DNA from: Psammoneis japonica
Taxonomy: Eukaryota
Direction: 5' to 3'
NCBI GenBank assembly: GCA_008632985.1
Contig: QPGO01000041.1
Location: forward strand, 434,001 to 498,000
Length of the DNA stretch: 64,000 nucleotides
This document shows, piece by piece, positions 1,060-47,629 of this stretch. Within the stretch, counting starts at the first letter, position 1, and each line of letters begins with the position of its first letter. The position numbers and the translations under genes are program-made. The notes under the pieces are model-generated. The model did not search any database. It was given only the letters and a program-made list of their open reading frames with translations, and was not told where the DNA came from.

Positions 1060-2960
1060 GATTCTTCCCACACAATTTTTGTGCACCAGTCTTTGTGAAC
1101 CAGACCAAATGACCACAAGAACATCATTTGAAACTGACAAAAATTGAAGAGAAAGTGGGTGAAAGAAAACAACAACTCCTCACTGCTGTTTGTGTGGCAG
1201 ATGAGGCACCGGGATGACGAAGTGTGCATTTGTGCCCATGGGCAAAAAGTGCCCTGCCATGCAAAAGGCACACGGAAAACTGTGCCCTGCTGGGTGGTTT
1301 GCTTCTTCGCAGAGCGTGCCCGGCAAGCGATGAGTGCCAGCCACGTGCACAATCCCGCGTGCTCTGGAGGCCCTTTGACAGCAATTCCCTCCAACTCGAG
1401 TTTGTTTTCAAATCATCAAGAAAACACACAAGCAACCATGAGCCATGAGCTGCTCTCCTGCCCACTCCCACCCCTTCCACCAGCCACAACACAAAACACC
1501 TGCCAGTGCAGAAGAGTTGCTTGCATCGCACAGCAAAGAAGGCAATGACATTTTTGGCCTGATGGCTTCTCAAAAAGCACCTGCTGCTGGTGCAAGCAAC
1601 AAAAGGCTGCTGTTGTTACCAAGGCAGATGCACTGGCCGTCAGGTGGTGAAGGACATTTTTTGTGCTTCAGTTTCTTGGAGTGCATTTGTTTTGCCTGAA
1701 TTTGCCCTCAGTCATGTCATTTTGTTGAAGTCTGACTCTGTCATGCATTTTCAAATTAAATGCACTGGCACTCTTCAAAGGCAAACCTCTGGAAGGAGCA
1801 TTCAGCATTTTTGTTGCTCGTCAATCACCTGCATTGAGTGCCAACAAAACAAGTCATCCAAGGACAAAGCGTGGCGTGACTGCTGCAACGAATCAGTGAG
1901 CTCCAAGAATGATGCCATCAAGTTGGGAGTGGTGATGGAAAACATCATTTTGCTGTTGTTCCACAAAAGAAAATTGTGAAAAGATGCAGCTGGTGAGTGC
2001 AATGATGGCAGAAATGCAGCCAGAGAATGGCGACTCATTTCCAAAAATCTGTGTGACAAACTGAAAGCTTGTTCAAATCCTGTCATCAGAAACACTCAAA
2101 AACACAGTGAAATTTGTTGGAACATTAGTGCGCTCATGAGTGAGCATGCCTTTGCATGGCAAATGGTGTCTTTTCACATGCACGGGTCATTGTTCAGTCC
2201 TGCATGACAGCTGCTGCTGATTTTTGTAACCCATTTCTGTGAAAAAAACTGTTTGTGTCCTTCTTTTGGCCACTCCTCCATTGATCATGTCACTCTTGGG
2301 GTGCTTTGTTGTGGTGTTTTGTTCTGCACTGAACTGACACCTCAACACACTGCAACCAAATTTGGCTGATCCTGTCCTCCACAGCCTTTTTGGTGAGCTG
2401 GGCTGCTGGGCTGGCTGGCAACATTTGAACATTTCTTTCCCAAAAGTGTGCATCTTTGTGCATGGAACCTGTGCATTTTCAGTGCTGCACAAAATTGTGC
2501 ATGTGAATGGTTTGGCTTTTGGGCCATGGGGTGGCCTGCAGCTTGATGGTTTTCACAGACCCCGACACTTCTGGCTGCACTCAGTTCCATGTGTGAGCAT
2601 CTCTGGATTTCATTGGCTTTTTCTGCATGCATCCCACTCATTTGGCTGCAGTCTTTGTGAACGGAATCATGATTGCTGTGACAGCCACACCCCTGAGGTG
2701 GCTGGACCCTGGCTGTTGCCACAGAAAGAAAAGAGCCAGCCCAATTTGCAAAACAGAGAACCAAGCAGCATGAAGACATGTGGTGACATCCTGCATTTGT
2801 TGTGCACTGACTGACGTTGAGTTTGTCATTTCTCCCATGGTTTGCATTTGGCACTCTCATGCAAAAATCGTGAGAGCTTTCTTGCAAACAGCAACAATCA
2901 CAGATGTTCAAACCCAAAGGCCCGCAATGCCGCACTTGAAGAAATGACGTTGAGCACAGA
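1060..2960. mobile_element. Degenerate repeat/TE-derived block (TpA- and CpG-depleted), family unassigned
   Basis: TA is nearly absent and TG/CA is in excess. Many overlapping Cys/His/Gln-rich ORFs occur on both strands. A segment at ~2137-2212 is a mutated copy of ~839-916. Confidence 0.55.
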
Positions 2961-3176
2961 GTGACATTGCAGACTGGCTATGAGGTGGCCCGGGGGGGGG
3001 TGCGAAGCGCGCGTCGGACGTCGGAGGGAGTTCTTTATTCTCGGGGCTATAAGGCTTATCTCCAACATCTTCATCTTGCATCTATCGCATTGAAGGCATC
3101 ACACCGTTGCTCCGTTGTTGTATTGCTGATCGACTGACCCTCCATCAACCCCTCTACTACTGCCTGATATCTGAAC

Positions 3177-4334
3177 ATGTCTAAAAGAGAAGATGATCCA
3201 GGATTTGTCCTGTTCTATGAGGGCTGTGATCCACGCCTCAAAGCTCCGTTCTGTGTTGGCTGCAACATGAAAAAGAAGGATGAGATCGTCTTACTTTCAG
3301 CGCGCGAAAACAAGCAACAATCGCTGAAACAGTGCAGTGGCTGCAAACTCGTTTACTATTGTTCGCGTGACTGCCAGGTAGAGGACTGGAAGAACCACAA
3401 ACAGCTCTGCAAGAAGTTTAAGAAACTTCGTGCCAATGTCGCTCATGAAGCCAGCAAGATCCAGACAGCCTTGATGAATCCAGATCTGGTTGGACACTTT
3501 TGGAATCACGAGGTTGGCTTCACGTATCTAAAGGCGAAGTTCGATCTTGCTCTCGAGTTGCATCCGGTTGCCTATAACTTAAATATCCTTCGACACTGGG
3601 AGGAAATAATCCGACACGTTCAACAGGTCTTGAGACTCGGCCATTTAAATATCGGCGATGATCTAGGAGCTAACGTCAAGTTTCCACTCTACTTGATCAA
3701 CTTGGGTCATCTGGACAAGGCCTATTCGGTATGTCGTTACATGATAAGACGACAGTCGGAATCTAGCCAGACTGACTTGGAGATTCAGAAGGGAACTATG
3801 GAAGGAGATTGGATGTATCCATGTGAACCACACTGCCGATTCAACGACATCCAAGAAGATTGTCCCGAAGCCGACTTAACTACGATGCATGAGCACCATC
3901 TGGTGGCTATCTGGCTCATCAAGAGGAAAATCATGTCAATGGCCTACGTTGCGGAAAAAGCATGGTTGTGGTTCTTAGAAACGGACTTTGGCGAGCAGTT
4001 CAATGAGCACATGGATGTCGGCTTTGAGATCATGGGCTTTCTCTACGATAGGGGCTCCTGTCAAACATGGCAGGACTTTCGACGTCAGTTTTGCGCTCAA
4101 GATGCTCAGCTGACCCGCATTTCTGACATCATTGACGGCGTTAATCCTCATATTTTCCCCTTCATGATTGAGTTTTGCCAGGAACAAAACCTGAGACAAC
4201 GAACGTACGATGACGGCGAGGACAAGTTCTTTGCTTGGGCTGCTGTGAATGATTGTAGTTATTCCCTCTTGACTCTACCGGGCCTTCAGGATTGGCTGAT
4301 TCAGTTCATGGGACGGCGAGGTGAGAGACGTTAA
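3177..4334 (+). CDS. MYND-type zinc finger protein (385 aa)
   Basis: CVGC...CSGCKLVYYCSRDCQVEDWKNHKQLC matches the MYND finger. Intact ATG-to-TAA ORF with normal composition. Confidence 0.88.
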   Translation: MSKREDDPGFVLFYEGCDPRLKAPFCVGCNMKKKDEIVLLSARENKQQSLKQCSGCKLVYYCSRDCQVEDWKNHKQLCKKFKKLRANVAHEASKIQTALMNPDLVGHFWNHEVGFTYLKAKFDLALELHPVAYNLNILRHWEEIIRHVQQVLRLGHLNIGDDLGANVKFPLYLINLGHLDKAYSVCRYMIRRQSESSQTDLEIQKGTMEGDWMYPCEPHCRFNDIQEDCPEADLTTMHEHHLVAIWLIKRKIMSMAYVAEKAWLWFLETDFGEQFNEHMDVGFEIMGFLYDRGSCQTWQDFRRQFCAQDAQLTRISDIIDGVNPHIFPFMIEFCQEQNLRQRTYDDGEDKFFAWAAVNDCSYSLLTLPGLQDWLIQFMGRRGERR

Positions 4335-7722: not shown

Positions 7723-8042
7723 GCACGCAACACGAACAGAAAAGTGAAAAAGCGTTGGTCTCCTCGTCGTGGCAACGACATGATTTGTGAGCAGGTTTGC
7801 ATCGCCGTTACTCTGACTTCAGTATCGTCTTATGTAGATGCTACGTAAAAGGACGTCATCGACCGTTACCCACGCGTGATCACGTAGAATCTACATAGAT
7901 TTTCTACTATATTTGGTAACTGTCGGACAACGACTTTTTGTGGAGGGAAATCTATAACTATTTATAGATAACGAATACAAGTATGAAATTATCAAAATCA
8001 TGCAAGGTGCTCGGTGGCGACACTCCGACGACCTCTCCAACC
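7723..8042. promoter_or_regulatory. Probable bidirectional promoter between the 555-aa gene and RRP6
   Basis: The two starts diverge ~320 bp apart. The spacer has AT-rich TATA-like words (ctataactatttatagata ~7952-7970). Confidence 0.45.
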
Positions 8043-10934
8043 ATGAGCGGCCATGACGACAGCGCCGTTCAACAAGACAAGCCGTCGCTTGCCAAACTCC
8101 TGTCTTCGTTGGCTCTGGGTGCTCGCGCTGTTCACGGATTGCCCTTGGAGGACGACTTTCACTTTCAAAATTCCTTTCCCGAGTTTGCCTCGCTCTCACA
8201 AGAATGTCGGCAAGAGCTGCTGCAAACGCTGGCCATTTCCCTCGAAGATCCGTCCCTGGTGGAAGCGTCCACTAGCGATTCACTCGATCCGCACTTGTGG
8301 GAAAGATGTGCGGATGCTTGTGATGCACTGGTGGAAAAGGTAGAAGCCTATCTCGAACGATCCACCAACGCCACCCAACCGATTGAACAATGGTCCGACA
8401 AGGCGCGACAACAGGCACAGCATTCTCATGGACGCGTAGTGGCGTCTCTTGTCGAAATGGAAAAGCCTCAAATCACTCATCACATTAAGGTTCAAAACAA
8501 TCGTCTTGAGCCCTTTGTGCCCAATGTTACCACAAAGCACCACGCGGTTGTGCCGCTTTCGCTCGAGCCTGTTGAGGGACACGGATTGGATACGAGATTT
8601 GGTGATTTGCGGCGCAGCAATGTGGTTGCGTCCGACCTAGTGGCACCATCACACCATGTTCCTCATCCCTATCAGCAAGAGATTGCTTCGCTCGAGTATC
8701 AACCGTGGCAGCTCGAGGCACCGTCCCAAAAGCCTCCGCCCATCAAAGCGGCCGACCATCTAGACGCGTCGTGGGTGGATACGAGAGAAGGACTCGACGA
8801 TTTGCTTGATCAATTAGAGGGCGTTCAGGAAGTTGCGATCGACTTGGAAGCCCACTCTTACCGCAGCTTTTCCGGGATGATCTGCCTCATGCAAATGACT
8901 TTTCAGAAGGACGAAAATTTGTCGACCTACTTGGTGGATACGCTTGCGCTGTGGCACGACATGGAGGCATTGGCACCTCTGTTTGCCGACCCGACGGTTG
9001 TCAAGGTGATGCACGGGGCAGACTGGGATGTGCAGTGGCTGCAACGAGATTTTGGCATTTACATTGTCAATCTGTTTGACACGGGACGTGCTGCGCGAGC
9101 GTTGGGGCTGTCGTCGGCTGGATTGGCGTTTCTGTTGCAAAAATACGTGGGAGTCGAAACGGACAAATCATTCCAGTTATCGGATTGGCGACAACGGCCA
9201 CTGTCAGAAGAAATGACAAAGTATGCCACCATGGATACTCACTACCTGTTGGATATTTACAATCGCCTCAAGTGGGATTTGAATGCTCATCCCGATCCGA
9301 ACGTGAGTATCGAGGCGGTCTTGGATATGAGTCGCAAGATTTGTTTGATTCGCTACGACAAGGAACCCTTCAAGCCCATGGCGTACAAGTTGCTCATGAA
9401 TAGCACTCGCAGCAAAAGTTCCAAGAAACGATCCGAACTAACGAGCAAGCAGGAACGCGTCTTGGCAGCCTTGTTTGATTGGCGTGATCAAACGGCGCGA
9501 GAAGCAGACGAGTCCATTGCGTTCGTCTGCGGCAATCAGGGTCTTTTGCGTTTGGCGCTGTCTTGTCCAACAACGCTGACACTACTCCAAACATGTTTGA
9601 ATCCCATGCCACCCTTAGTCTTGCAGGGCGCCCAAGACATTGTGAATCGCATCAAGGTTGCTATTGCTCAAGACGCTTCCTCGTCCTTTGCGCCGTCGTC
9701 CGCCTTTTTCAAGCCAGCCGAGGCAGAGGACACTGTCGATGACGATGAGCTCCGCCGAGCCACGGGAGTGAGTCCAGTGTTGGGAACCGAAGCACTCTAC
9801 AAGCAAGCCGGATGGATGACACCGCAGCAGCAGCAGCAAGCGGTGTCTCCCACTGGCAGCAACAACAAAGCGTCGACTTTGGAAGTGGTGAATACCACTA
9901 CGACAGACGAGGATGAAGATTTAGATCCCACGACATCCAAGCCACGCAATTTGCTTATGGTACACTCGGACAACAAGGATTATCGTTCCACAAACAATTA
10001 CACCATGCACAGTTTAGGAATGGGGAAAGAAGATCAAAAGGAAGCCAGCGACGGACTGGGTTCTGCACGAGCCGCATTGGAAGTAAGTGACGAAACCGTT
10101 GCGCCACGTCTGCAAGAAGAATCGGAGCGAGCCAAAGAGAGCGCTACGCGGATCCGCATGGACATGGCCAACAAAACACAAGACTTGTTAGGTGTCACTG
10201 CGGCTTTGGAACAAACCACCAGTGCCGAGGAAGAAGAGGAAGACGATGAAGAGATCAATAAGGAACACGACAGCGACGATGATTTTGAAATTCCAAAGAG
10301 TATGAAGGAAATCTACAAAATTAGCAATCGTAACCGACGAAAAAACAAGAAGTCGGCGTCGTCCCGCGAAAGCAACAATGACAATACGGTGGCTCATTCG
10401 CAGCCCAAACCATCTGACACGCTGGAGGGTGCCGAGGCCATCCTGGCAACGGCTGGGTTGGATGGTAAGGGTTACTTTGACGGTGCTGCGGATTCGAAAC
10501 GTCAGCGAACACAAGACGATGCCACCGCCAAGTCCACCAAGTCAAGAAGTGACGATATTCGATTCATGCAACAGATTGGATGGATCAAGGACAAACAAGA
10601 AGCACAAGACTTGCTTTCCACAGAACGCCAACGACACGGCAATGATGGAGAAATTGCTGCTATTGACGTGGCTAAGGATAGTACGGACGATGCGAAATCT
10701 CCAGCCTTTGATTATGCATCTGTGGGAAATATTGGTGTGTTTCATCCGAACGCAGCAGGCACCAATAATAATCCTTTTTTCAGCGGTGCCGCCATGGCAG
10801 GTGGCGGTCCCTTGACGTCACCACAACCGACGCGTTCCCCCAGGAAGAAAAAGGACGGTAAGCCGTCGCGTGGCGTCAAACAAGAACGCCCGGAAAAGAA
10901 GGATGGACGGAGCTTCATCTACAAAAAACGGTAG
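8043..10934 (+). CDS. RRP6: Nuclear exosome 3'-5' exonuclease RRP6/EXOSC10 (PMC2NT-like region, DEDDy exonuclease, HRDC)
   Basis: Motifs VAIDLEAHSYRSFSG, MHGADWDVQWLQRDFGIYIVNLFDTG, LSDWRQRPL and YATMDTHYLL, plus HRDC LFDWRDQTAREADES. Start placed at ATG 8043; the ORF is open from 7983. Confidence 0.95.
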   Translation: MSGHDDSAVQQDKPSLAKLLSSLALGARAVHGLPLEDDFHFQNSFPEFASLSQECRQELLQTLAISLEDPSLVEASTSDSLDPHLWERCADACDALVEKVEAYLERSTNATQPIEQWSDKARQQAQHSHGRVVASLVEMEKPQITHHIKVQNNRLEPFVPNVTTKHHAVVPLSLEPVEGHGLDTRFGDLRRSNVVASDLVAPSHHVPHPYQQEIASLEYQPWQLEAPSQKPPPIKAADHLDASWVDTREGLDDLLDQLEGVQEVAIDLEAHSYRSFSGMICLMQMTFQKDENLSTYLVDTLALWHDMEALAPLFADPTVVKVMHGADWDVQWLQRDFGIYIVNLFDTGRAARALGLSSAGLAFLLQKYVGVETDKSFQLSDWRQRPLSEEMTKYATMDTHYLLDIYNRLKWDLNAHPDPNVSIEAVLDMSRKICLIRYDKEPFKPMAYKLLMNSTRSKSSKKRSELTSKQERVLAALFDWRDQTAREADESIAFVCGNQGLLRLALSCPTTLTLLQTCLNPMPPLVLQGAQDIVNRIKVAIAQDASSSFAPSSAFFKPAEAEDTVDDDELRRATGVSPVLGTEALYKQAGWMTPQQQQQAVSPTGSNNKASTLEVVNTTTTDEDEDLDPTTSKPRNLLMVHSDNKDYRSTNNYTMHSLGMGKEDQKEASDGLGSARAALEVSDETVAPRLQEESERAKESATRIRMDMANKTQDLLGVTAALEQTTSAEEEEEDDEEINKEHDSDDDFEIPKSMKEIYKISNRNRRKNKKSASSRESNNDNTVAHSQPKPSDTLEGAEAILATAGLDGKGYFDGAADSKRQRTQDDATAKSTKSRSDDIRFMQQIGWIKDKQEAQDLLSTERQRHGNDGEIAAIDVAKDSTDDAKSPAFDYASVGNIGVFHPNAAGTNNNPFFSGAAMAGGGPLTSPQPTRSPRKKKDGKPSRGVKQERPEKKDGRSFIYKKR

Positions 10935-11149
10935 TGAATTGAAATGGGAAACTCTGTATTTTATTGAAAGCGGTGAGATGGAATCTAGCTAGGATAGTGC
11001 TACATTTAATCTCCTGGTAGCTAGCTACAAGACTGCTATTACTAGACACCACTGGCATCACGCCCTTCCTTCCACCTCCAAGCACGAAATCGGGGTCGGT
11101 CAACGAGCACGGTAACAACTCGCGCACTCTTGTTGAACACCAATGTGGA

Positions 11150-12510
11150 GTGGGACATTTTTCCAAAAGCAGTGTGGTGTGCAGAAATCAGTGAAACAAA
11201 AAAAATGATGCTGACATCACCCTGCATGAACCACACGTGTTTGCAGGTGATGCCAATGCTGGGAACTAAAGGCAGATGAACTTAAAAACTTGGCAATCAC
11301 TGATCACCCTGAGAACAGCTGTGTGAACACCATGATCAGAGCTTTGTCACACAGACACACCAAACACACAGACAGGCAGGGTTGGGCTGTGGCAATCAAT
11401 GGCACAGTTTGAGATGAAGCACAGAGAGCACATCATGCGTGTGTGCATGATCTGCCATTCTTCAAGAAACTTGCATGAGTTGTGATCATGATGTTTCTGC
11501 CCTGATCTTCTGTGAATGATTTGTCAAATGTTCTGACTCACCTCTGGATTCACATTGCAACTCCCATGCCATTGTAGCTGGCAGAACCAAAACACCGCCT
11601 CACAATGACAGTGCAGCACATTCTTGGGGCAATGCACACCTGCTTGGCAAGAGCAAAAGAACAACAGATGCCTCAGTCCAGTTTGCACAACATTTCCATT
11701 TGAAAGTTTAAGGGTGCAGCACCCATGTGTGAAGAGAGAGGAGAGTGCAAACTTGTTTTGCTTGTGGAGTTCTCAGTGCCACGCAGCCAATCTCCCGTGT
11801 TTTTGTGTTTTTGGCCGCGATGCACCTGGCCAAGAAAATTTTCATGCACAGACATTTTGGCAGTCCAATCACTCAACTTCAGCCAGGAAGGGATGCAAGT
11901 GTGAGCCAACACATTGCATGTGAAATGGAAAATGCCAAAGCTTTGTGAGCAGTGGGTTTTGTGTCGCAAAATCGTTCTTGACTCGCCAGGCGCCATTGCT
12001 GCTGAGTCAGGTGTGTCAGCACAGCAGTGCAAAGCCAGGTGTGTTGCAGCCAGGGAAAAAACCAGCATCCTGGCAGCAGGCTGTGCACATCAGAGGCACA
12101 AAGCCCTTGACTTAAATTCATTTTTGCATTGGGAACAAAGCAAAAAAGTGCATCTCTGCAACGGCGGCACATGTGTGGGAGCAAAGCGGCTGACCAAGTT
12201 TCTGGATTTACAGCAGCACTTCACCAGGTGAACGACAAAGAATCATGTCCTGTTGCACTGACCAAATTCCATGGGGTTGGTGCATCTGTGGGTGTCCAAT
12301 TGAGAATGGGGACTTGTGGGGTGGTTGGTCCCTGCATGAAAAATCAACAGGTGGCGACACACTCCAAGGCTGAGCCATTGTGTGCAAAACTGCTCTGAAC
12401 GAAACAAAACTTGCTTCTTCTGGTGGATTTGCACTTCACTCTACTCCCTACAAAAAGGGCTGTTTTCCATGCAAGAATGGTGATTGCATGCATGCCTGTT
12501 CTTTGCATCA
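11150..12510. mobile_element. Degenerate repeat/TE-derived block (TpA/CpG-depleted), family unassigned
   Basis: Same compositional signature as the other decayed blocks. No recognisable intact protein. Confidence 0.5.
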
Positions 12511-12730
12511 CACTGAAAGATCCAATTGAACGCGACGTGGACATCGGGACGGGTGAAGGAATGAAGTAAGACGGCGGCACGGACGCGACACGCGACGCGG
12601 GCTATTGCAGCTTGCAGCGACACAATGGGCAGGCGAACGGACCGCGAAAGATGATTCATGATGATATGATGAAGAAACATCTTGAAGCCTGCAACACAAT
12701 GCCGTAAACCGGCACACTTCATGCCATGCG

Positions 12731-20630: not shown

Positions 20631-22946
20631 ATGAAAACAATCTACGCGTTTTTCGTCGCGACTGCGGCGTCGGCGCAGAAATGCGGGGCTTTTTCGGCTT
20701 CAGGACAACCCCATCGTTTTGACGCGGATATCGCTTCAATGGAAGCTGATGTTATTTGGTCTCTCCGAAGTTGCGAGACCCTCGACCACGTTCACGACAT
20801 CCTCGAGTTTTCTCTATGGGCAAATCCTTCCGTAAGCAACGCTCAGAGAAGCATTCAGCAGAGTAATTCAAAACCGGAAACACGAGTGGGCCCTAATGTT
20901 GCCGCTGCTGCGCTACATAAAACAGTTGATTTAATTTGCTTTTCGGAAATTGACATCGAGAGTGGAAGCACGTTGGCTATGTTGTTGGAGAATGTTGGTA
21001 CAGCTGTTGTGACGGCGCCCAACACAACGACGAACCTTACGGTGTATGCTTTGTCGGATGTGTTGATTTCGCTTGGAAAACTTGCTGGTGGATACAATCC
21101 GAAACTGAAACCCCTTGCTAGTAAAGTGTGTGACCTGATTGATGACCAACAAGAGTGCTACATTAAGGCTGTAGGACCGAAACGATTGGTTCAGAGTCTC
21201 GAGACGATGGCTTCTCTGAGATTGATGTCTGATTTTACTGATTTTGTACAAGCTGCCTGTGGTCGACTGGGACGAGGTGACTCCTTGGGTGCCTTGAAGG
21301 CCTATGATCTTTCTCGAATTCTTAATGTTTGTTCAAGGCTGGACCAACACCCTGTCTCTCCCACACCCTTTATGAGACGCCTTCGAAAGAAATCAGTCCG
21401 AAAACACGCCGCCAACTCGGATATGTTTCGAGCTCTGGTAGCTGCAGAAGTGCTATCGTCCAATGCGACTGCAAAGATGCGTGAAGAGGCAAGGGTAATG
21501 TGCTTTACGGTCCTTCGTGATTTGGCAGATCGACAAGAGTCGCCACTCACGACACGACAAATGACCAAAGCGTTGGATATCGCTCAAAGTCTTGGAATCA
21601 ATAAGACCGAACCTATTCTGGCACAACTCTGTCATAATACCTGTGCGAGCACCATAGCCTCTCAAGATAGAGTTACATTGATCGACGTGAAACGAATTTT
21701 GTCATGCTTGCTTAGACTGGACCTCGTGTCTCAGCCGAACTTAGTCGGACGTTTGGGAGAACGGTTTCGAAAGTTGGTCTGCGCTGGAGAAGAGCAAATG
21801 GAACCTCGACGTGTGGCCGAGATTCTCTTGTTTGCTGCGCTTCTTCATCCTGGTAATGAAGTCATCATGACGCCCTACGTTCGCGCTGCCAGAGTTCTAT
21901 TGGCTTCTGAATCCAATGTCGATCATAAATTTCTCTCTCTATGCAACTGTGTCGAAATCAGCCGGTTTCTTTACTTTGCAACTCAAACTCATTGGACGGA
22001 CCACGAGGTGTTGGTAGAGCTTGCTCATCAGCTGCTTGATTCGGACAAGTGTAGGAAATGCACACCAACCACCGCCGGGCGGATACTGAAAAGCTTCACT
22101 ACCCTGGCATTTCGAGACGGTCCTGATGCAAAGAAGTACGAACAGGAAGTTGAAGATCTTCTCCCCCAGTTGTTTGATAAATTCGGAGAACATTTGTGGC
22201 CCATGGAATTTGAACCAATGGAAGCCTCAGCCATAATGTTTGCATATGCTCGGGCTTCATATTATGTAAGTGATATGGCGGTTTTTGATGCCCTGGCGGG
22301 ACGTGTCGCGCTAGGGTTGGAAGAGTGCACTGCCAGACAAGTGGTGCAGAGCTTTTGGGCATGCGGCAAATTGACAATTCGAAAACAGTCGTGGAGAAAG
22401 ACTCTCCCGCACTACGTATCATGCGCCAAGGAATTTGCCAGATACCTTGCTTTGCAAGCACCAACACTTACGACAAAGGATGTTGCGCAATCCATATGGA
22501 CCTGTGGACGGCTCTATATCAAAGAACCTTCCATCGTCTATCCATTGGTATTCCGAACACAGGAGCTGGTATCCAGTCTTTCATCTCAGGAGGTTGCCAA
22601 CATTATGTGGGGCTTAGCTAGAGTTGGATACAATGACAAAGAGACCATCTCAGAGTTGACAAGGCAGATCGTATCCTTGAGTCCTTCTCCACAAGAGGTC
22701 TCCAATGTCCTGTACGCTATGGGTAGAATGAAGATTGGCGACCGGGAGGTATTCTCGCGGCTCTCTGACGCATTGATGGAACAGATAAAAGACGCAAGTG
22801 CTCAGTCCATTGCCAACGTGCTCTGGGCATACAAAGCAGTGCATGTTACACCTCCTAAGGAGCTACTGGACAGTTGGGCGACACAAAAGCTGGGACTTGT
22901 TGGACTCGTGGTGCCGCCAGCTAGTGAAGATGAAGACATCGTGTGA
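20631..22946 (+). CDS. Plastid-targeted helical-repeat RNA-binding protein (OPR/FAST-RAP-like)
   Basis: ATG 20631 gives the signal peptide MKTIYAFFVATAASAQKCGA^FSAS with an ASAF-like cleavage motif. C-terminal ~37-aa repeats: TTKDVAQSIWTCGRL, SSQEVANIMWGLARV, SPQEVSNVLYAMGRM, SAQSIANVLWAY. Confidence 0.82.
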   Translation: MKTIYAFFVATAASAQKCGAFSASGQPHRFDADIASMEADVIWSLRSCETLDHVHDILEFSLWANPSVSNAQRSIQQSNSKPETRVGPNVAAAALHKTVDLICFSEIDIESGSTLAMLLENVGTAVVTAPNTTTNLTVYALSDVLISLGKLAGGYNPKLKPLASKVCDLIDDQQECYIKAVGPKRLVQSLETMASLRLMSDFTDFVQAACGRLGRGDSLGALKAYDLSRILNVCSRLDQHPVSPTPFMRRLRKKSVRKHAANSDMFRALVAAEVLSSNATAKMREEARVMCFTVLRDLADRQESPLTTRQMTKALDIAQSLGINKTEPILAQLCHNTCASTIASQDRVTLIDVKRILSCLLRLDLVSQPNLVGRLGERFRKLVCAGEEQMEPRRVAEILLFAALLHPGNEVIMTPYVRAARVLLASESNVDHKFLSLCNCVEISRFLYFATQTHWTDHEVLVELAHQLLDSDKCRKCTPTTAGRILKSFTTLAFRDGPDAKKYEQEVEDLLPQLFDKFGEHLWPMEFEPMEASAIMFAYARASYYVSDMAVFDALAGRVALGLEECTARQVVQSFWACGKLTIRKQSWRKTLPHYVSCAKEFARYLALQAPTLTTKDVAQSIWTCGRLYIKEPSIVYPLVFRTQELVSSLSSQEVANIMWGLARVGYNDKETISELTRQIVSLSPSPQEVSNVLYAMGRMKIGDREVFSRLSDALMEQIKDASAQSIANVLWAYKAVHVTPPKELLDSWATQKLGLVGLVVPPASEDEDIV

Positions 22947-22976
22947 CTGCTACATACAAGGACACGACTTTGAGTT

Positions 22977-23240
22977 CTATCGTGGGACACCACCAACCTG
23001 CTGAAAGGATCGCCAGAGCATGGAGAAAAGAGCTCCTTGGATAGCGTTTGTCAAAAGTCGAGTCTGCAAGCCTCGGCCGAAAAGCTCAAGGAATCCGTCC
23101 TTTTCGATAATTAGATTCACTGCTTCCTTGTACGAAAGCTCCACAGGTTTTCCGTTCGATTCTTCTGAGGATGGTGCATCTGCGAGGCCGGCTGTTTGCT
23201 TCGTTGTTTTGATGACTCGAGTCACTATGCTGCAGGAGTG
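22977..23240 (-). pseudogene. C-terminal fragment of a mitochondrial carrier (SLC25) gene
   Basis: RVIKTTKQT...SYKEAVNLIIEKDGFLELFGRGLQTRLLTNAIQGALFSMLW matches the last carrier repeat. No upstream repeats are visible before the next gene. Confidence 0.65.
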
Positions 23241-25461: not shown

Positions 25462-27719
25462 GGTGACAATATAGTAAATAGAGGCTGGAATTGCATCACA
25501 GCAACAACACAACAACAGATAGACGTGTCGTCGCCGTCCAAAAATGAATCCCGCAAGCGACCAGAGTACACCAACGTTTTTCGGTTCAATCTGTATTTAC
25601 GAAAGGTTTCATACTCAACAATTAGAAAGTATCTTACATACTTAATTTTAATTATGTAGATATTTGAATTCAATAATGTGTATGGATCGGTAGGATAGAA
25701 TTGGATGGAATTTAACGCCCGAGTCCCAACATTAAATTATTAAGGGATGAGGATTTCTTTAAAAATTAAACACGAAAACGCTTGCTTCTTGTGTGCGAGG
25801 TTGCGGGGGCACGGCATTCCTCTCTCTAGCAGCAGTGGGGCCATACGTAGAGAGCAGCAGTGGTGTCTCTGCAGCATTTTGTGAGATCCACTCCCCATTG
25901 CTGAGAATGGAAGGGTTTTTCCATGGCAGTCAATCATTTTTGCCTGTGGAGCTTGTTGTTTGTTCATGCCAGCTGCCATCAGCATTGGGAGGAGCCTGGA
26001 GCGGGTGTCCAAAAAATGACACGGCCAGATCCAGCCCACTCTTGTTCGAAGCATCGCAGCAAGGGACAGCCGCAATTAGAGGAGGAATCCATGAGATCAA
26101 CAGCCAGCTCATGAGGCTGTTCTGCTGCACTCAAGTTGAGCCACTTGATGCTCAATTGTGCTGTGAAAAAAGGGCAGAACAGCGGACGTTCTTCTTCTCA
26201 AAATGCGGCAGCACCACACTGATGGCTGACTGCACTCATGATGCTTGCACTCTGCACAGCTGCATCTTTTTGCTGTGTTCCAAGCTCCTCACAATTCCAT
26301 GTCAGTGCCCATGAAATTGTCCCTTTGTGTGAGTGAGTGGCCATGTGCCACTCTCTCTTTGGGGGGGATGTCGGAGCACAAGCAGTTGTGCCAATGACAA
26401 AGACACCAAAGGTTTCGTGGGGATGCTTTGTTGTGCCTGTGTTCAGGAGGTTCAGTGCTGCCATGGTGTTGAATCTCTTTGCATTTTTATTTCAGATTAC
26501 AGTGCTCTTTCCACGTAAAATTCTGCATGATTTCAATCCTTTTTGAACCGTCTGTTTTGGCACATCCAATTTTCAAGTGCAATTCTGTGCTGTTGGATCA
26601 ATTGTCGAGACAACAATGAGTCACTTTTTGTCACCCTGTGTTTTGTGCCAACTTTCTCTTTCCAAGTTTTCATGCAGCGCATTTTCAATTCAAGAAGAAT
26701 GCCACCTGGTGACATCTTAAGGTGGGATTTGGGGCACTTCGATGCATTGCTGGTTGATGCTCTTTTTCATCTTGTTGCTCAGGTTCAGTGTGCCATTTCC
26801 CTGTGCAATTTTCTGTGCATGATGGAATTTCTCTGTGACTGCCATCTTTCATGTTGAATTTTCTTGGATGTTTCATCCTGGGAAGTTCTTTCACTCTTAA
26901 AAGTGCTTCATCTTTGGAAATGGTCGCGGGCTTCAGTTTTCTGCAGTGTTTGTTTGTGGCCACTCCCACGTGGTGTGGCTGGGCTTGTCCATTCTTCAAA
27001 GCACAGCAACCCAGTTTGCCGTGCAACAAGCATCTGCTTGGGTGCTGTTTCAACTTGTAACTGTGGCATGTGACGGGCATTGATTTTCTGACTGTGTGTT
27101 GACAGTGCCGCCCTTTTGGGCAGCACTGGGGAATGTGGGTCTGCTGTGGTCGGTGTTGGCATGGGCAGCAGTGAGACAACAGTGCAATTAATTTCATTTT
27201 CTTTCAGTGTTCCAAGCTCCTCCCAGATTGCACACAGCTCTCAGAGGATCCAAACAACTTCCCAGCTCACAAAGCATTTCTGAATCTTGTTGTGAAAGTG
27301 GTGCAAAAGCAGAGCCTAGAAAAGCACAACTCATTTTCTGGACAAAACCTTGCCAAGTCTAGTCACTGGAAAGTTTCAAAGCACACTTGGGGAAAAAGCC
27401 ACAGCAAAAGGACATGATGGTCATGAGGACATCTGATTTGCCATGAGCTGCCAAACTTGCAAGGAGGAAACCAAAAAATTGAAAAACTTGGCACCTTGGT
27501 CAGAGAGTTGTTTCTAGCCTTATTTTGGAGGTTGAAAGCCCCCACACTCACAAAGAAAGAAAAAGCAAAAAAATGGAAGTGATGCTGTGGATGTTTGTGC
27601 TGTCAAAGTGGGCTTTCCAGGAGTGTCAGGACAGCACTGTCATGGAGTTAGAAAGTTGTTCAGGTGCAACCCCCTGGTGCTCTGAAAGTTGAGCTCTCCC
27701 TTTTTCCAAACATTCCCAC

Positions 27720-28381
27720 TTTTTTCATTGTTTTTCATTTTTGCCATCAGGAGGTGCACAGGCAGGGCAGCAAAACATCAAAACCTCAATTTTGTGCACA
27801 CTCTCGGCTGGCATTCTGCTGATGCTGATGTTCAGCATCAGCAAATTCCATTGGAGGTCCTTCTTGGCATGCTTGCAACACTCTGCTGGGTGGCTCTCAT
27901 TGTGGTGCAGAAGATCTCGTTCCCCCAAGGCTTGCTGCAGCACCACCAGGGTGGCTCCTGTTGATGACCCAGGGTTGGAGTGGATGCCAGCATGATCCAA
28001 ATGATTTCAATCATTCTTGAGGGTGTCTGCTTCCTGGTTCAACTCTGTTTGTGAGCCTGCACATTTTTCATTGTTTCATTTTTCAGCAATCAGGCACACA
28101 CCTGCAGGGCTGCAAAACATCAAAATCTCCAACTTGTGCACATTCTTGGCTGGCACTCTGCTGATGCTGATGTTTGGCATGTTGGCAGAGTCCATTGGAG
28201 GTCCTTCTTGGCATGTTTGTGGCAACATTCTGATGGGTTGCTCACAGATGTTGTTCCCAAGGTTTGCCATGCCACTGGGGTGGCTGTGTTGACAACCCAG
28301 GGATGGAGAGTGGACCAGTGTGACACAAGTGACTTAATCATTTTTGAGGACATCTGCTTCCTGGCTCAACTCTGTTTGTGA
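27720..28381. repeat. Tandem duplication, period ~345 bp
   Basis: tttttcattg...gcaaaacatcaaaa...ctgctgatgctgatgtt...ccattggaggtccttcttggcatg...ctgcttcctgg.tcaactctgtttgtgagc is present twice. Confidence 0.85.
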
Positions 28382-31300
28382 GCTGCTGAGCCTGGGAGCT
28401 TTAAAAGAGGGCAGATGCATGCGCCACTGAGTGGGGCTTGTTGGTTGTCCCACACTGTGCCCAGCTGTTGCTCCCAAACTCTTAGCTTCATGCAGAGTTG
28501 GGAAATTGGAAATTGCATTGGCAAGGTTGGGAGTCAAAAATGGTGCCAGCACCCACTCACAAATGTTGCTGACAATGGTTTTCCTGGACCAGTCCAATGC
28601 CACCTCTTTTAACCCTGTTCTGTCTCTGCCCACCAGGGGCAAACATTCTCTGTGGCTGCGTCAAAAGTGACAGATTCCTCTGGAATGGGGTGGAAAATGG
28701 CACTTCAGTTGGCCAGCACAAAAATTTGTTGATGCCATGGCAGGACAGAGGATTTTGTTGGAGGTGCCTTCATTGGAGGTTGCCACCAGCATGGCAACAT
28801 GGAGCTGGGAATGTTTGGCAATGTAAAAGGAGAGCAAAAAGGATGCTTCCAGATGGAAACAGCAACTCCAGTTGTGCTGGAGAAGCCACTGAAGGGATGG
28901 CAGCTGCAAGCAGCATTGTGTTTGGCAGTGGTGCATGGGGATCCACTGGGATCTAGGATGGATGCTCTTGTGGCCAGTCCAACCCCATGGTTCAAAGTGC
29001 AAAGTTGGCACCTGGGCACAAGAATGCAATGCTGGGTTGGCACAGCACTCAGCTAGCATCACAACAACATCAGCACCAATTGCATTGGATGTGTCAATGG
29101 CTGCACAATGTTGGAAGCAATGCAGTTGAGTTCTGGCATTCTGAGCTCTGCACACACTGGCCTCTGTTGTCAGCACTTGACAGGATGGTTGTCTTGGCTG
29201 TCACTTTTTGGCTGACTCCTCTTTGAGCTTCAAGCCTCAACAGAACAGGGGACAAGGTTGTTGGAGCAGATGAGAGTGTTCTGCTGCAGTTGCACCACTT
29301 TCAAATTCCTGTGCACAAAGCAGGGAATGAGCACATCAGTGCCAGTGTGATGGAGTGGTCTGCTGAGTGTGCCAAAGCACATCTTGATGCTCAAAAATGG
29401 AGATGAAAACTCCAAGTGCACTGACATCCTCTTTCTGAGGACCCACCATGTTGGGCACAGGGGGCAGGGATCCTGCCAGAGGCAGCAGCAGATTGTGGAA
29501 CAAAACACCTGTCCACTCACAATGACTTTGGGGGGCTCCAAAGTCAGTGTGTGCAACAACCAACCTTGACTGCCCTGTCTGCAAGTGAGGCAGATGACTC
29601 TCTTCCAAGATGATTTTAGTGGTGTTGGCCTTGAGATCAGTGTGATGCATGATGGCTGGCCTTGCCCCCTGCTTGCAACAGGTGTGGGGCAGAGCAACTT
29701 CTGTTCCAAAATCACTTGGACAGGGACCACATGTTGCAGTGTCTGGACAATGAAGCATGGTGATGAAAATTCTTGCAAAGACTTTGAAAACATTGCAACC
29801 ACATTGACACAATGCTGCCACGTTGACACTTTCTGACAGCCTCCTTTAGAAGCTTGGTTTAATGACAAAATGATGTGCACCAATGAGGTTGATTGTCACT
29901 CCCCTGCAGAGCTCTGTGGAATGCTCAATCAGATGTTGGATGGCGCCAAGCATTTGATGGATGCCACTCCTTCCTTTGGCAAACGTTCTTCAATCTGGCA
30001 ACTTGTGCAATTCCAGCATCCTCTGCCAGCACCAAGAAGAAAACAAGCAACCTCCAGATTGGACAATTCAGATCGGATCTTACATGTGAAGGCAGTGGTG
30101 GGAGCTCTGGGAAGAGCACAACCGTCTTTGGTTCATGGGCATGATGTCGACTAAAGGAAATCCTCCCAATGATGCAAGGCTGAGGCCAAGTTGACAGCAA
30201 CACACAACAGATGTCAGAAGCACCTGGCCAAAGACAAAGAAGTTTTGTCAGATGCCTTAGAGGAGCATGAGATGTTCTCTGCAACATGAGTGCAGAATTG
30301 GACTACTGTGGTCTGCCCCAAACTAAAAACGACAGTTTGAAGGAAGCAAAATCTTTGGTGCTTCATGGAACATGCACTGTTGTTGGCCATTTCCATCAGG
30401 CACGTCCAGATGGAGGCACTGCAATTGGCTGATCACATGAACTTTGCACAGACTGGAGCCCCTTGACAGAGTTGTAGAGAGTTGCTTGCGCTGCTCCTCC
30501 CAGATCAAGGTGGTGATGTGCTGCTCACAAGAAAAGGCATTGTTGAGCATGAGCTGCTGCATGGGCATGACAGCCAATGGCAAACCCAATGTCTGGCTCA
30601 CTTCTAAACACCCAATGGAACAACTGCACAGAGAGTGAACTCCCTTGAAACTGATGACACATCTTTTGAAACTGCCACCAAAAACAGCAACAGCTTCTTT
30701 GACATGCTTTGTTTCCTGCCCAACCTTTGCAGGGCACAACAAATGCTTGACAGTGTTGGCATCAGCACAGCTTCTGTTAAAAGACAGCAACAATGAATTC
30801 AAGGGTGGCACCAATGCTGGGTGATGGCAGCAACACTGTGTGATTTTTGCTGCACTTGGGCCAGAGTGCTGATTGACAGCCACTGTGCAGCCCTGCAGTC
30901 AAGGAGTGACAAAAAAATTTGCTCACTTGGCCATTGTGCCAGGAGAACACAGTGCAATGCCTGTGCCGCAGCCACTGGCTCTGCACCTGAGCTGTGTGTG
31001 GATGTGCAGACACTCTGTGCTTTTGACAGCTTGAGTTTTCTCCATCACGTGTGCCTTCACAGAGCAACAACCATCCTTGTCCAAGCATTGTTTGCCATGC
31101 TCTCTAATGTGCACAACTTGATTCATGCTGGTGGCATTGTGCAATTGCACACCAGGCTCCAACCTGAGAACATCACATCTGGGACACCAATGACATGGGT
31201 CTTGTTCTCACTGTCAAAAATGTTTGACTTTTAATTGGGCATTTTCTCTGTTTAATCTAAAATGTCACTGTGCCTTCTCATTTCTGCATTCATGAAATGT

Positions 31301-32899
31301 TTGACAACAACTGTCTCCAGTTGCACAGTCAACAATTTTTCCACTGAATGACAAACAAGATCGCAAATTCATTTGTGTTCATGACATGTCCTGAATGAAG
31401 CACACCCCACTTTTCCAGATCTTAAACTTTGTAGACATCAAGTTGGATTTTTCCTTCCTCCAAAATTTTTGCTCTCTGATGTTGCCATCTCCCTGTCATC
31501 TTCTTTCCACATGCCACTCTGTTAGATTGGAAGAACACATGCATTGTTCCTCTTCACTTGCTTTGTGTTTGCGGTTGTGCTTCTTGCTGACAACTTTGTT
31601 CTGTCAGTGAATTGTTGTGTGCATCTTTCTCTGTCATGTCACACCAGTGATGCAGTCACAAGGTCTTGTGTGCCCTTGTTGCAAACATTCTGTGTGGTTC
31701 TGAGCATGTTTTTTGTCATCATCTTGCCACCAACTGTGGTGCTGCCCTTGGTCTGACCAAGTTTTTCAGCTGCTGCCCATGCTGCAGACAACATGGTTTC
31801 AACTTGGAGAAAAAGTTGGAGAGCACCATCTTCCATGATGCCCCACTGCTTCCACCACTTCCCTCTTTTCTCTTGCAGCACAGTCATCTTCAAGAGCTCA
31901 CATGCCATCCTTGTCTGGTTGGATTTTGATTGCTTTGCTTCCTTGCCATGCGCTGCTGTCTCTGGCACCTCAGTTGGGTGTTTTTCTGATCAATGCATGT
32001 GCCCCCATTGCTGAACTCCCTTTTCCAACATTGCCTGGCATCTCCAAAAGTGTGCACCCTGCCATGAGAAGCAGGATGCTTCTTTGTGACACTGCCCTGC
32101 TGTTGATGCATTTCCCCTTTGAGAAGACAACACCATGTGCAAATTTGATGCATGTGGTGAACTTGACAATGACCCTGTGTTTGGTTTGGCAACGATGCAC
32201 CCAATCCTCCCTTTCTCAAAGAGCCAGTTAAATCCAGATCCATCTCCTCCCACCAACTTGGCCAATGACTCTGCCATCAGTGCCTCTGGGTGCCATTGGA
32301 AGCTGCTCATGACCCCCTTCTGTTTGATGCTCTAGATGTTTTTCTGTGCTGCCAAGGCTGCCATTGCAAATGCTTGCTGACTCATCTTGTTTGCCGGTGA
32401 TGGTGTTTCTGCCCTTGAAGGCAAAAGTGCTGTCAACTCTCAATGTTCCCAAGTTCAGTGCAGCCAACTCTCTTTGTGGCACTTGGGGTGCTCCTGCAAT
32501 TTCTTGTTTGGCAACTGATGCATCTCCTCCTTGTCCCCCCAATGACTTGATTGCAGATTCCTCATTTGATCCCAAAAATCTGCTGGGGCCTGCACTTGGT
32601 CTTGCCTTGCCCTGATGAGGATTTTGACATTCCTCCAGTGTGCCTGCCCGACATCGCACCCATGCTGGTTTGCCTGTTGCATCTTTGTCACTGGTCCAGT
32701 GTTGTGATTGACTTCATTGAAAATGGCTTGTAAGATGTGGAGGTTGCTCAAGGTGCAAGTGGACCTCGTGAAGTGAAGTGGCTTGACCCTCTCTGATGCA
32801 CTGACATTCCTTGCACACTTGGGATTGTCTGAAAAAGGGGCAAAGATGGATTGAAGCAATCATTTGAAGAATTTTGTGTTGCCACCCTCAGCCAGTGAT

Positions 32900-34310
32900 T
32901 TTGCACCATTTTGACTGAATCAATTGCACAGACAGAGTGCAGTGCAGTGCAGCAGATTCTGCCAGCCTCAACACTTTCCAAGCTAATCTGCTTATTTGCA
33001 ATTGCCATTGCATGCCAAGAATTTAGGTTTTTTGGTTTTGTCTCTGTGTCTTTCTGAGTCTTGGCATTCACAGACTGAACTGTCAATCTTTTGGCTTTCT
33101 TGGACATCACTGACTGCTTGATTGTTGCATTTCCTTGCAGTTTGGACATTGTTTGTTGGTTCATGGCTGCAGTCTTCAATGCATTGAGGCAAAAGACAGA
33201 TGCAACTGGGACACCCAAATTGCTGATGTTCTCAGCTTCTGATTCTGCATTTGTGCCCAAACAAACACAGTGCCAGCATGCTGAACAATTGTTGCACTTG
33301 TGCCATTTGACTGATTCAACTGCACAAACAGAGTGCACTGCAGTGCAGCAGACTCTGTTGGCCTCAACACTTTCCAAGCTGTTCTGTTTCCTTGCAATTG
33401 CTGTTGCATGCCAAGCCTTTGGGTTGTTTGGTTTTGGCTCTGTGTCTTTCTGAGTCTTGGCATTCACAGGTTGAACTGCCAAGCTTTTGTTTTCTTGGAC
33501 ACTGCTGGCTGCATGACTGTTGCACTCCCTTGCTGTTCAGTCATTTGGCTCATGGCTGCGGCTTTCGATGCATTGTGGTGAATGACAGGTGTGACTGTGA
33601 TGCCCACACTGCTGTCATTCTTGGCTTTTGATTCTTTGTTTGCACCCAAATGCTTGGCTTCAGCATTTTCTAAGCTGCTCCACTTCTTTGTGGTTGCAGT
33701 TGCATGCTGAAACTCCACGTCTTTCAGTTTTGGCTCTGTGTCTTTCTGAGTCTTGGCAACCACAGACTGAGCTGCCAAACTTTTGGTTTTCTTGAACATT
33801 GCTGGCTGCTTGACTGTTGCACTCCCTTGCCATTCAGTTGCTTGGTTCATGGCTGCAGCCTTTCATGCATTGTGGCAATCATTGGCACATCACTGCAACA
33901 CCCACATGGCTGTTGTTCTTGGTTTCTGATTCTGCATTCACACCCAAATGAATGGCCTCACCATTTTCTAAGCTGTTTTGCTTCTTTGCAAGAACTGCCA
34001 TTGCATGCTGAGACTTTGGGTTGCTCAGTTTTGGCTCTGTGTCTTTCTGAGTTTTAGCATCCACAGGCTGAACTGCCAAGCTTTCAGTTTTCTTGGACAC
34101 TGCTGACTGCTTGACTGTTGCACTCCCTTGCTGCTCAGTTGTTTGGTTTCTGGCCATGGCTTTTGATGCATTGTGGTGAAAGACAGACATGACTGCAACA
34201 CCCATGCTGCTGTTGTTCTCAGTGTCTGATTCTGCATTCACACTCAAATGAATGGCCTCAACACTTTCCAAGCTGTTCTGCTTCTTTGTGATTGCCGTTG
34301 AATGCTGAAA
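32900..34310 (-). repeat. Degenerate coding tandem repeat, ~4 units of ~300-400 bp
   Basis: Recurrent ctgtgtctttctgagtcttggca and gcctcaacactttccaagct. The peptide AVQ(P/S)V.AKTQKDTEPK is repeated four times. Confidence 0.85.
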
Positions 34311-35480
34311 CTTCAGGTTCCAGAGCAGCCCAGAAGGTGCAGCTAAGACACCAAGCTGTTGCCATCAAAGGCTGAGAAAGCTCCAGAGTTGGTGGGAAAT
34401 GGGCAAGCTGGCTGTGGCTCCACAAAAATTGGATTTGAGGTGTGTCTTGTTGCATCAACTGGTGAGCACCCCAAAGAATTTTTCATCAGCCTTGTGCGGC
34501 ATATGTGCAGACAGCCCTGGCTGCAACTGCTGCTGCAGCAGCAGGAGAAGGGAAAAATGAGTGAGCATGAGGGGCGGTGCAACACAGAGCACTTCTCAGA
34601 GATGCTGTTGCGTGTTGCTTGTGTGCAGCGTTGCCGGCCATGTGCCCGTGGTGGCATGTCTTCAGCCAGAGTTTTTTTTTGTTTTGTCCCCACTCGCACA
34701 AACTTGCACAGTGTGGGGCTTGTTGATGACTGAACCAAGCAGTGCCTGAACATGGCTGGCTAGCCTCTGTTGACAAAGGCAAAAAGGCATCATTCTCAAT
34801 GTGTCATTTGTCAGGCACGCACCACTCGTGGTGTGCAGAACATGGCAATTGTCGAAATCACTGTCACAGTTGTTGTTGTTGGTGATTTTCTTCTCCTGGA
34901 GAAAGCACCATGAAGCCTCAGTGCCAGAAAACAACATCAAACCACTCAGCAGGGGTTTGCTGGGCACAGAATCAGAAAGCTAAATATGCCAGCTTTCAGC
35001 ACAGAAAAATGAGTCTCTCGTGACAAACAAGAAAAGGCAGCTGCAAGGCACTTCAAAAATCAAATAAATTGCCACTCCAGACTTCTAAAACAAAGCATGA
35101 ATTGTGCCAAACAGACGTCAATGCATTGTCGACTGATGCAACGGTTTTTGCTCTGGCGCGCCCGCCCGCGATCCACTTGATGGGTGTTCGCCATAAGCCT
35201 GTGTGTTCGCTGCTGCGGCGTGTTATTCGTTCGACCAATCAGAATTGCCATCTCGTGGATGTCATGGCATGATCTTCGGAATCATCTTGGAGTGTGCGTG
35301 AGAGCGTGAAATCCAAAATCTCGTACCGGTACGCACGGTGCAGTACGTTTCGCGGATCGCGGAGTTTTTCGTTTGACGACTATTCTCTCGCATGCTCTAG
35401 AGAGTATCTGCCACCGTATCCTGCTTCTTGCAGATAGCTTAGGCGCAATTCGACCAGCTCTCTTCGTCCCATCCTTCATC

Positions 35481-47493: not shown

Positions 47494-47501
47494 AAAAAAA
47501 A
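47494..47501 (-). terminator. RNA polymerase III oligo-T terminator of U6
   Basis: A8 on the + strand, immediately after the U6 body. Confidence 0.85.
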
Positions 47502-47605: not shown

Positions 47606-47629
47606 CAACCTAACTAGTTGATTTTTTAT

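Follow-up and report, generated by a model that had tools for sequence, protein, structure and literature searches.

Blocks nearly devoid of TpA and CpG beside intact genes in the diatom Psammoneis japonica: a probable record of two context-dependent transition processes

In mutation accumulation lines of the chlorarachniophyte Bigelowiella natans, a rhizarian, two integrated viral regions accounted for 231 of 302 nuclear mutations; A>G or T>C changes made up 230 of these 231 hypermutations, every one of the 230 at TpA and at approximately 1000 times the background rate, and C>T changes played no part (10.64898/2026.01.13.699255). The same text reports 124 TpA-poor, CpA+TpG-rich clusters (cut-off Rho ≤0.43), and in it Mettrop et al. 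propose an ADAT2-like adenine deaminase in this organism, citing reports that ADAT2-type enzymes deaminate A and C in DNA; according to this preprint, TpA-directed hypermutation has been measured directly in one organism only (bioRxiv 10.64898/2026.01.13.699255). The present analysis concerns 64,000 nt of the diatom Psammoneis japonica (contig QPGO01000041.1, positions 434,001-498,000 of the forward strand, assembly GCA_008632985.1), a whole stretch referred to below as the window, in which depleted DNA that has lost almost all TA and most CG makes up about half of the gene-bearing sequence. This DNA is probably silent and non-genic and appears to have undergone two context-specific, domain-restricted transition processes which have run almost to completion. 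A literature search returned no report of such TpA-directed hypermutation in diatoms.

The window resembles the B. natans case in that TpA gives way to TpG or CpA according to strand, in its TpA-poor, CpA+TpG-rich clusters, and in being affected regionally rather than genome-wide. Mobile DNA may be among the targets here as well, given one Copia fragment of ~2.3 kb, the origin of the other depleted DNA not being recognisable. It differs in its host, a diatom and hence a stramenopile, in a depletion near saturation (observed/expected ratio, o/e, 0.08, compared with the Rho cut-off of ≤0.43), in the CpG loss which accompanies TpA loss here but not in the accessible text of the preprint, and in edges which hug genes across about half of the 64 kb; the rule for the 3' neighbour given below was derived here. 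De novo mutations were measured in B. natans, whereas the changes described here are known from sequence alone.

Segmentation was performed with a 3-state hidden Markov model (HMM) over TA, CG, CA+TG and all other dinucleotides, together with a 500-bp scan (log-likelihood -44744 for three states versus -45723 for one). The depleted blocks listed in the original prediction, a first reading of the window made without database searches, were recovered by this segmentation with limits that agree to within ~50 bp (Table 1). In the full-depletion state TA made up 0.0051-0.0052, CG 0.0083-0.0087 and CA+TG 0.228 of dinucleotides, compared with 0.038, 0.056 and 0.147 in the normal DNA of the window; domains in an intermediate state had 0.0086 TA and 0.035 CG. 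Within blocks the o/e was 0.08 for TA and 0.15 for CG, and 1.83 each for CA (0.108) and TG (0.120), while depleted windows of the 500-bp scan had o/e values of 0.00-0.18 for TA, 0.00-0.5 for CG and up to 2.09 for CA/TG. The gain of CA + TG approximately matches the loss of TA + CG, and the sum of the four pyrimidine-purine steps is 0.241 in normal and in depleted DNA alike, which is exactly what transition-only conversion would give; G+C did not change (0.474 in normal versus 0.475 in depleted DNA). The HMM blocks (0.9-9.3 kb) are of normal sequence complexity, are not a simple repeat and fill most of the long intergenic spaces of the window. A chance origin is excluded by 60 first-order Markov simulations, in which the longest TA-free gap did not exceed 594 bp (1454 bp observed), the longest CG-free gap did not exceed 349 bp (1162 bp observed) and at most 4 TA-free gaps were longer than 350 bp (27 observed).

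The blocks are a mutation record of TA to CA/TG and CG to TG/CA transitions and not a native composition. Five pairs of repeats within blocks (1764 aligned bp) differ by 226 transitions, with transition:transversion ratios of 104:32, 47:18, 33:16, 15:10 and 27:4, and by 71 adjacent double transitions, 49 of which are CA/TG pairs (mean 29.3 and maximum 45 in 2000 shuffles). Such a pair points to a single ancestral TA or CG, of which one copy now holds the CA and the other the TG product. A duplicate pair in normal DNA (39663-39895 versus 40423-40660) had a ratio of 20:23 and one CA/TG double mismatch. In addition, a 47-bp element of normal DNA (868-916) recurs in a block (2166-2212; 89% identity) with 4 C/T transitions and a single A/T change; three CG/TG pairs and one TA/CA pair are among these differences. 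The core of this 47-bp element, of which one copy lies just outside the block and the other inside, is unchanged. When the window was compared with the contigs of a read set designated X1, 12 of the 13 differences listed in blocks were transitions, compared with 14 of 27 in the gene island; 5 of the 13 fell on residual TA or CG of the window, which account for 2.8% of block bases, and 2 ran in the opposite direction. The TA and CG sites left in blocks are still variable, a hint of a locally raised mutation rate.

A mobile element provides a further record of direction. Only the gag and protease-like third of a Copia element was found in the window. Its gag open reading frame (ORF; 55055-56296, minus strand, P0123) has homologs at E values of 9e-55 to 1.5e-37 and belongs to a family with 8936 representatives at E ≤0.001, the full-length members of which carry the copia-type reverse transcriptase RVT_2. 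None of its 414 residues is Tyr, compared with 2.7-4.7% in 7 homologs, while Cys stands at 5.3% (0-1.9% in the homologs) and His at 6.0% (2.6-3.9%). Half or more of the homologs share a Tyr in 16 columns, and in these the window has TGC or TGT at 8, CAT at 1 and another codon at 7, with Tyr at none; in the downstream part of the fragment, compared by eye with P0129, Tyr has likewise given way to Cys or His at further sites. Most of the gag ORF lies within 55130-56197, where 1 TA is present versus 28 expected and 49 CG versus 80 expected. A tblastn search of the window with 7 full-length Copia polyproteins gave no match at E ≤0.01 outside 54100-56361; a match at 34820-34957 (E 0.036) was treated as noise. 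Between the gag and protease-like parts, ~450 bp (54682-55130) retain several TA and CG (o/e 0.28 and 0.78 in the 500-bp window) and may be a less edited, younger insertion; no tRNA or Rfam match was found there, and a relaxed-threshold Rfam search of 54400-55300 gave only a chance-level microRNA match.

It could be argued that the composition itself is selected or functional, for instance through avoidance of TA and CG in structural DNA or long non-coding RNAs, and joint avoidance of UpA and CpG with an excess of CpA and UpG is known at the RNA level (PMC3829696). This is very unlikely for a dead gag ORF whose Tyr codons are now Cys or His codons, or for repeat copies which decayed independently to CA or TG; the depletion is 10-20-fold, the residual TA fits the per-strand kinetics described below, and a real domain was found in 0 of 142 block ORFs. 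These 142 were the stop-to-stop ORFs of at least 90 amino acids, out of 246 listed from 70 amino acids upwards, and gave no Pfam match above noise. A zinc-finger match in one block ORF (16.5 bits versus a cut-off of 27) was sub-threshold and was rejected.

The TA that remains is distributed according to its neighbours (R, purine; Y, pyrimidine). Relative to normal DNA, retention was 0.009 for RTAY, 0.095 for RTAR, 0.076 for YTAY and 0.47 for YTAR; a per-strand model predicts 0.065 for the two mixed classes (the product of square roots), close to the values observed. Exponents of TA loss fitted under this model were 2.66, 1.86, 0.65 and 0.16 for a 3' T, C, G and A, respectively, which gives the order TAT > TAC >> TAG > TAA over a 16-fold range, and chi-square was 21.5 (12 df) compared with 198.7 (15 df) for a uniform rate. 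The products agree with this: in Y_Y flanks, where TAY is present on the plus strand only, TG:CA was 845:508, while in R_R flanks, where TAY is on the minus strand only, CA:TG was 667:523 (Fisher P =9e-21), with a far weaker bias in normal DNA. The loss of TA is as expected if the two strands are attacked separately, the rate depending on which base follows the A on its 3' side. For CG, in contrast, the exponents were flat (0.86-1.01 across all four neighbours) and a flank model was no better than a uniform rate (chi-square 18.2 versus 19.8). The TA and CG losses are most probably separate processes.

With deaminase editing of retroelements and viruses (ADAR, APOBEC, ADAT/TadA) the TA process shares A-to-G change and a preference for 5' T/U. 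The natural target of ADAT/TadA is an anticodon-loop A that follows a U, of which the present context of 5' T and 3' pyrimidine is reminiscent. On double-stranded RNA a 3' G is preferred by ADAR, unlike the order T > C >> G > A observed here, the 5' T being shared. The two DNA strands are affected to the same degree, which does not suit editing of a single RNA strand ahead of reverse transcription. Error-prone polymerase eta, which acts at WA motifs, was set aside, AA not being depleted (o/e 1.27), and further conceivable sources that were set aside are a T:G-glycosylase bias, palindromic modification of TpA (N6-methyladenine, 6mA, or 5-hydroxymethyluracil) and ultraviolet photoproducts at TA. 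The CG process resembles methylation-driven CpG decay, with CpG-dense promoters spared as in vertebrate-type CpG islands, in that CpG-poor, TpG/CpA-rich domains abut CpG-dense gene 5' ends and in that loss is independent of flanks; methylcytosine decay does not explain the faster and dominant loss at TpA. CpG methylation of diatom transposons by DNMT5a is reported (PMC9998398), and the CG loss would be compatible with it.

The original prediction had also placed TpA loss ahead of CpG loss, and within domains this is borne out. Of 128 windows of 500 bp, 64 were TA-low, comprising 40 with low, 17 with middling and 7 with normal CG (24 in the latter two classes), while none was CG-low without being TA-low. 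The counts for 55130-56197 indicate that TA is lost several times as fast as CG. Both depletions occupy the same domains, and CG loss was never seen without TA loss (0 of 128), as would be expected if one deaminase acted on A and C and edited TpA and CpG together in silenced domains, methylation being uninvolved; ADAT2-type enzymes with both activities on DNA are cited in the B. natans preprint. We nevertheless regard a single enzyme as unlikely: the rules differ (16-fold by 3' neighbour for TA, flat for CG), the extents are uncoupled (1 of 28 TA versus 49 of 80 CG left in the gag stretch), and in B. natans the changes were A:T>G:C at TpA in 230 of 231 cases, C>T being absent.

At block edges the precedence of TA was not reproduced. 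The original prediction had TA loss coming earlier or spreading further than CG loss; with separate change points for the two, TA loss reached further at 6 of 11 edges, CG loss at 4 and neither at 1, with offsets of 18-230 bp and no consistent direction. Of the two edge examples offered for TA gone and CG kept, the first holds (1069-1400: 0 TA versus 10.4 expected, 11 CG versus 21.8 expected), while the second, 20390-20530, lies in a segment of 49% C (20376-20546) where only 2.4 TA are expected, so that their lack says little. CpG-dense segments of this kind are often found between a block edge and an ATG. GCGCGC occurs at 17 sites in the window versus 6.7 expected (0 of 100 shuffles reached 17), and the sites at 3007, 20393, 35156 and 47776 lie ~50-110 bp from a block edge or from the edge of the U6 island described below; the sequence may be a promoter or boundary motif.

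The edges themselves are sharp (~50-230 bp). Mutated domains beside untouched gene islands, as first proposed, were found on both counts: the direction of change is evident within blocks, and blocks stop 85-500 bp from ORF starts and ends. Non-coding DNA is also spared. The only normal island in the 16-kb depleted domain (47552-47797) consists of the 5' part of a U6 small nuclear RNA (snRNA) gene and ~190 bp of the DNA before it, which is CpG-rich and includes a TATA-like box. As this island and the 4.3 kb of non-coding DNA at 39987-44301 are both spared, targeting appears to follow domain state and not coding status. A genome-wide bias which erodes TA and CG everywhere, with selection retaining both in genes only, would account for blocks occupying most long intergenic spaces; however, silent sites, flanks the size of untranslated regions, the ~190 bp 5' of U6 and the whole of 39987-44301 all have normal TA and CG, and this together with the sharpness of the edges makes such a bias highly improbable. 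For silent sites and flanks that stay normal, selection alone would be insufficient, and exclusion of the mutational processes from active chromatin would be the more economical reading.

Fungal repeat-induced point mutation (RIP) resembles the present case in its transition-only inactivation of mobile DNA, its dinucleotide context and its sharp compartments. RIP converts CpA to TpA and lowers G+C, whereas here TpA is depleted 12-fold with G+C unchanged; RIP needs duplicated DNA, whereas the blocks are mostly single-copy, though past duplication is possible; and RIP leaves strand-wise runs, whereas CA and TG are interleaved at random in the 6 blocks examined (runs-test z -0.59 to 0.36), so that strand-wise bursts as in RIP are not indicated. 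As a family of mechanisms RIP is ruled out by the destruction of TpA, the unchanged G+C and the absence of strand runs. A defence that is merely RIP-like, with homology as the means of recognising once-duplicated DNA and with mutation in bursts, would suit the retrotransposon fragment in a block and the short dispersed repeats in blocks (bins 17335-18001, 18669-19335 and 26673-27339); at ~17445-17554, 19113-19228 and 26956-27010 the window attracts many contigs at 80-90% likeness, from which it follows that small dispersed repeats exist. Diatom DNMT4 enzymes are, moreover, related to fungal RID (PMC9998398). The relation of blocks to repeats, which the original prediction had put forward for comparison, nonetheless proved weak. 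No similarity between blocks was detected (blastn, word size 9), although the process alone could give only ~9% divergence between copies; X1 contigs join unique genes to blocks, spanning the edges at 16531, 25855 and 35112; and the degenerate duplicate at 40248-40660, in normal DNA, was spared by the process. With TpA destroyed where RIP makes it, G+C unchanged and no strand-wise patches, a RIP-like trigger is quite unlikely. X1 word depth was 65-75 for block pieces and 60-82 for gene pieces, a depth which is not copy number.

Misreading of modified bases as CA or TG, that is, a sequencing or assembly artefact, was also weighed. Conflicting strand calls would likewise be expected to give a random choice of CA or TG at palindromic sites, and there is no record of the library type used for the runs. 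Against this, X1 contigs (reaching 315 kb, word depth ~65) match the blocks with 0-4 differences from the window per piece, which fits accurate polymerase-read data. Such data do not misread 5-methylcytosine or 6mA. Contigs of the X2 set cover gene islands only and those of X3 nothing, and the parts left uncovered say nothing on expression or absence. The same replacement of Tyr by Cys and His was present in an unrelated public record: among the best 150 gag-family representatives (median Tyr 3.6%), the minimum of 0.7% belongs to P0133, in which 10 of 16 Tyr columns hold Cys or His and 3 are still Tyr, whereas Tyr is retained at 13 of 18, 12 of 15 and 11 of 17 columns in three controls. A similar stretch also occurs in a relative's metagenome contig, one of 20 related Rrp6 loci (L003:817-1629), where 813 bp were classed as depleted (12 TA, 10 CG, 196 CA+TG). 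An artefact is on these grounds most improbable. The stretch in L003 is flanked by sequence rich in CTAG and TAGTA (1-300 and 1860-2250; TA o/e 1.1-1.5).

Under the preferred explanation, then, the blocks would be silent DNA outside genes, some of it at least the remains of a dead retrotransposon. In one process A:T would become G:C at TpA, giving TG or, from the other strand, CA, with 5'-TAY-3' preferred and the strands independent; its agent would be an enzyme reading a single strand, such as a deaminase of adenine in DNA. In the other, CpG would decay to TpG or CpA without flank preference through deamination of 5-methylcytosine in methylated repeats. Both would be limited to the same chromatin-scale domains, putatively heterochromatic, and kept out of transcription units with ~85-500 bp of flank, of U6 with its promoter and of some non-coding DNA. 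The view of the blocks as a record of heterochromatin, taken from the original prediction, would draw indirectly on the dead Copia fragment in a block and on the precedent of silent DNA in B. natans. It is possible, though we would stop short of calling it probable, that diatoms possess a chromatin-targeted DNA-editing defence in which a single-strand enzyme converts A to G in 5'-TAY-3' throughout silenced domains, with methyl-CpG decay in addition, leaving hardly any TpA.

Several points weigh against the two-process explanation. Expected TA and CG were taken from the mostly coding normal state of the window as a proxy for the ancestor; the ranking of TA contexts is robust to this proxy because 74 of the 113 residual TA lie in YTAR, while the absolute values are not. 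A recognisable mobile-element origin applies to ~2.3 kb of the ~32.7 kb of depleted DNA (HMM states 1 and 2, the chromodomain-RdRP gene described below left out). This gene, which encodes a chromodomain and an RNA-dependent RNA polymerase (RdRP) domain and looks live, has 33% of the TA and 64% of the CG predicted from its amino acids and codon usage; it may be partly edited, and a partly depleted, live-looking gene blurs the idea that genes are spared. The X1 contigs are possibly the assembly's own source data and hence no independent proof of the letters, and the X1 differences analysed were the 40 listed out of 328. Finally, 19 of the 20 metagenome Rrp6 loci (116 kb in total, mostly coding) were without a depleted segment, although these loci are short and mostly coding and so provide no evidence of absence in relatives.

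Table 1. Features of the window, with positions, strand (a point where the feature has none) and basis or content
Feature	Position	Strand	Basis or content
Full-depletion block	1069-2915	.	HMM; 4 TA, 24 CG, 427 CA+TG in 1847 bp
Full-depletion block	11125-12527	.	HMM; between Rrp6 3' end (10934) and next ORF (12686)
Full-depletion block	16531-20359	.	HMM; 16 TA, 19 CG in 3829 bp
Full-depletion block, largest	25855-35112	.	HMM; 54 TA, 60 CG, 2106 CA+TG in 9258 bp
Tandem repeats of ~300 bp in block	32910-34319	.	Copies differ mainly by transitions and CA-versus-TG double mismatches
Intermediate domain	44302-47551	.	HMM; 17 TA (nearly gone), 95 CG (about half kept) in 3250 bp
Full-depletion sub-domain	47798-52396	.	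HMM
Intermediate domain with retrotransposon fragment	52397-59981	.	HMM; 67 TA, 254 CG in 7585 bp
Ty1/copia-type long terminal repeat retrotransposon, frameshifted 5' third (gag and protease-like)	54100-56361	-	Homology searches
Full-depletion block, continues past window end	63090-64000	.	HMM
Intermediate-state call on chromodomain-RdRP gene, ambiguous	36318-39463	+	HMM
Normal-composition island, 246 bp	47552-47797	.	HMM; 12 TA, 22 CG
U6 snRNA gene	47495-47605	-	Rfam RF00026, 71 bits, E 5.7e-16
Internal control, normal TA/CG, no Pfam-bearing ORF, 4.3 kb	39987-44301	.	HMM
CpG-dense, C-rich, TA-free segment	20376-20546	+	Between block edge and ATG (20631) of next gene
Like segments	905-1059, 2991-3022, 12531-12645, 35116-35169, 59982-60061
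MYND-finger protein	3168-4334
Rrp6/exosome exonuclease	7968-10934
Chromodomain ORF	36829-39234
RdRP ORF	39132-39983

The ORFs of the window are long and intron-poor, several of them without a Pfam domain, and a tRNA scan of the window found no genes. The Rrp6 ORF has 350 relatives in the collection searched, none of them close (best identity 48%); those named among the 120 listed are all diatoms. In the gene at 35481-39986 (plus strand), acidic coding tandem repeats of 210 bp (36142-37188) are joined to a chromodomain (PF00385, E 3.5e-10) and to an RdRP domain of eukaryotic type (PF05183, E 1.3e-20) in which the DLDGD motif is present, with a frame switch near 39132-39234 (intron or frameshift). 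Such a fusion would be a plausible candidate silencing factor. The segment 40248-40660 is a degenerate duplicate of the 3' coding part of the RdRP (39608-39895) and lies in undepleted non-coding DNA. On the flanks of a gap of 55 N (43322-43376) there are a direct repeat of 99.5% (43377-43742 and 43858-44223) and an inverted copy (43124-43321 and 44006-43809); the repeats of 43124-44223 are probably an assembly duplication round the gap. At 20646-23220 both X1 and X2 hold a variant form with many substitutions, in which a 60-bp stretch (22971-23032) is replaced by 27 other letters, and which is probably a second, diverged allele.

For annotation the pattern, if general, would carry a warning: edited transposon genes are left without Tyr, with more Cys and His and with two of the three stop codons lost, and the loss of these stop codons means that blocks yield long spurious ORFs. 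Long stop-free frames are frequent in blocks (for example 2345-2977 and 29233-29895), as TAA and TAG are gone, and gene finders could be misled by them.

The window presents a known chemistry, TpA hypermutation, in a diatom, where it is found at saturation, together with CpG loss and with sharp limits round genes. If general, it would allow long-term silent chromatin to be mapped from sequence alone in algae of a group that dominates ecologically, and would provide a context rule, TAT > TAC >> TAG > TAA per strand, for any candidate enzyme to reproduce. If the proposed explanation is true, the limits of heterochromatin, down to a U6 island of 250 bp, would be readable from the sequence itself. 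Together with Bigelowiella, it would make TpA editing an old and widespread form of genome immunity in the stramenopile-alveolate-rhizarian (SAR) lineages, and DNA editing as an ancient eukaryotic immune mechanism would become testable in a tractable group.

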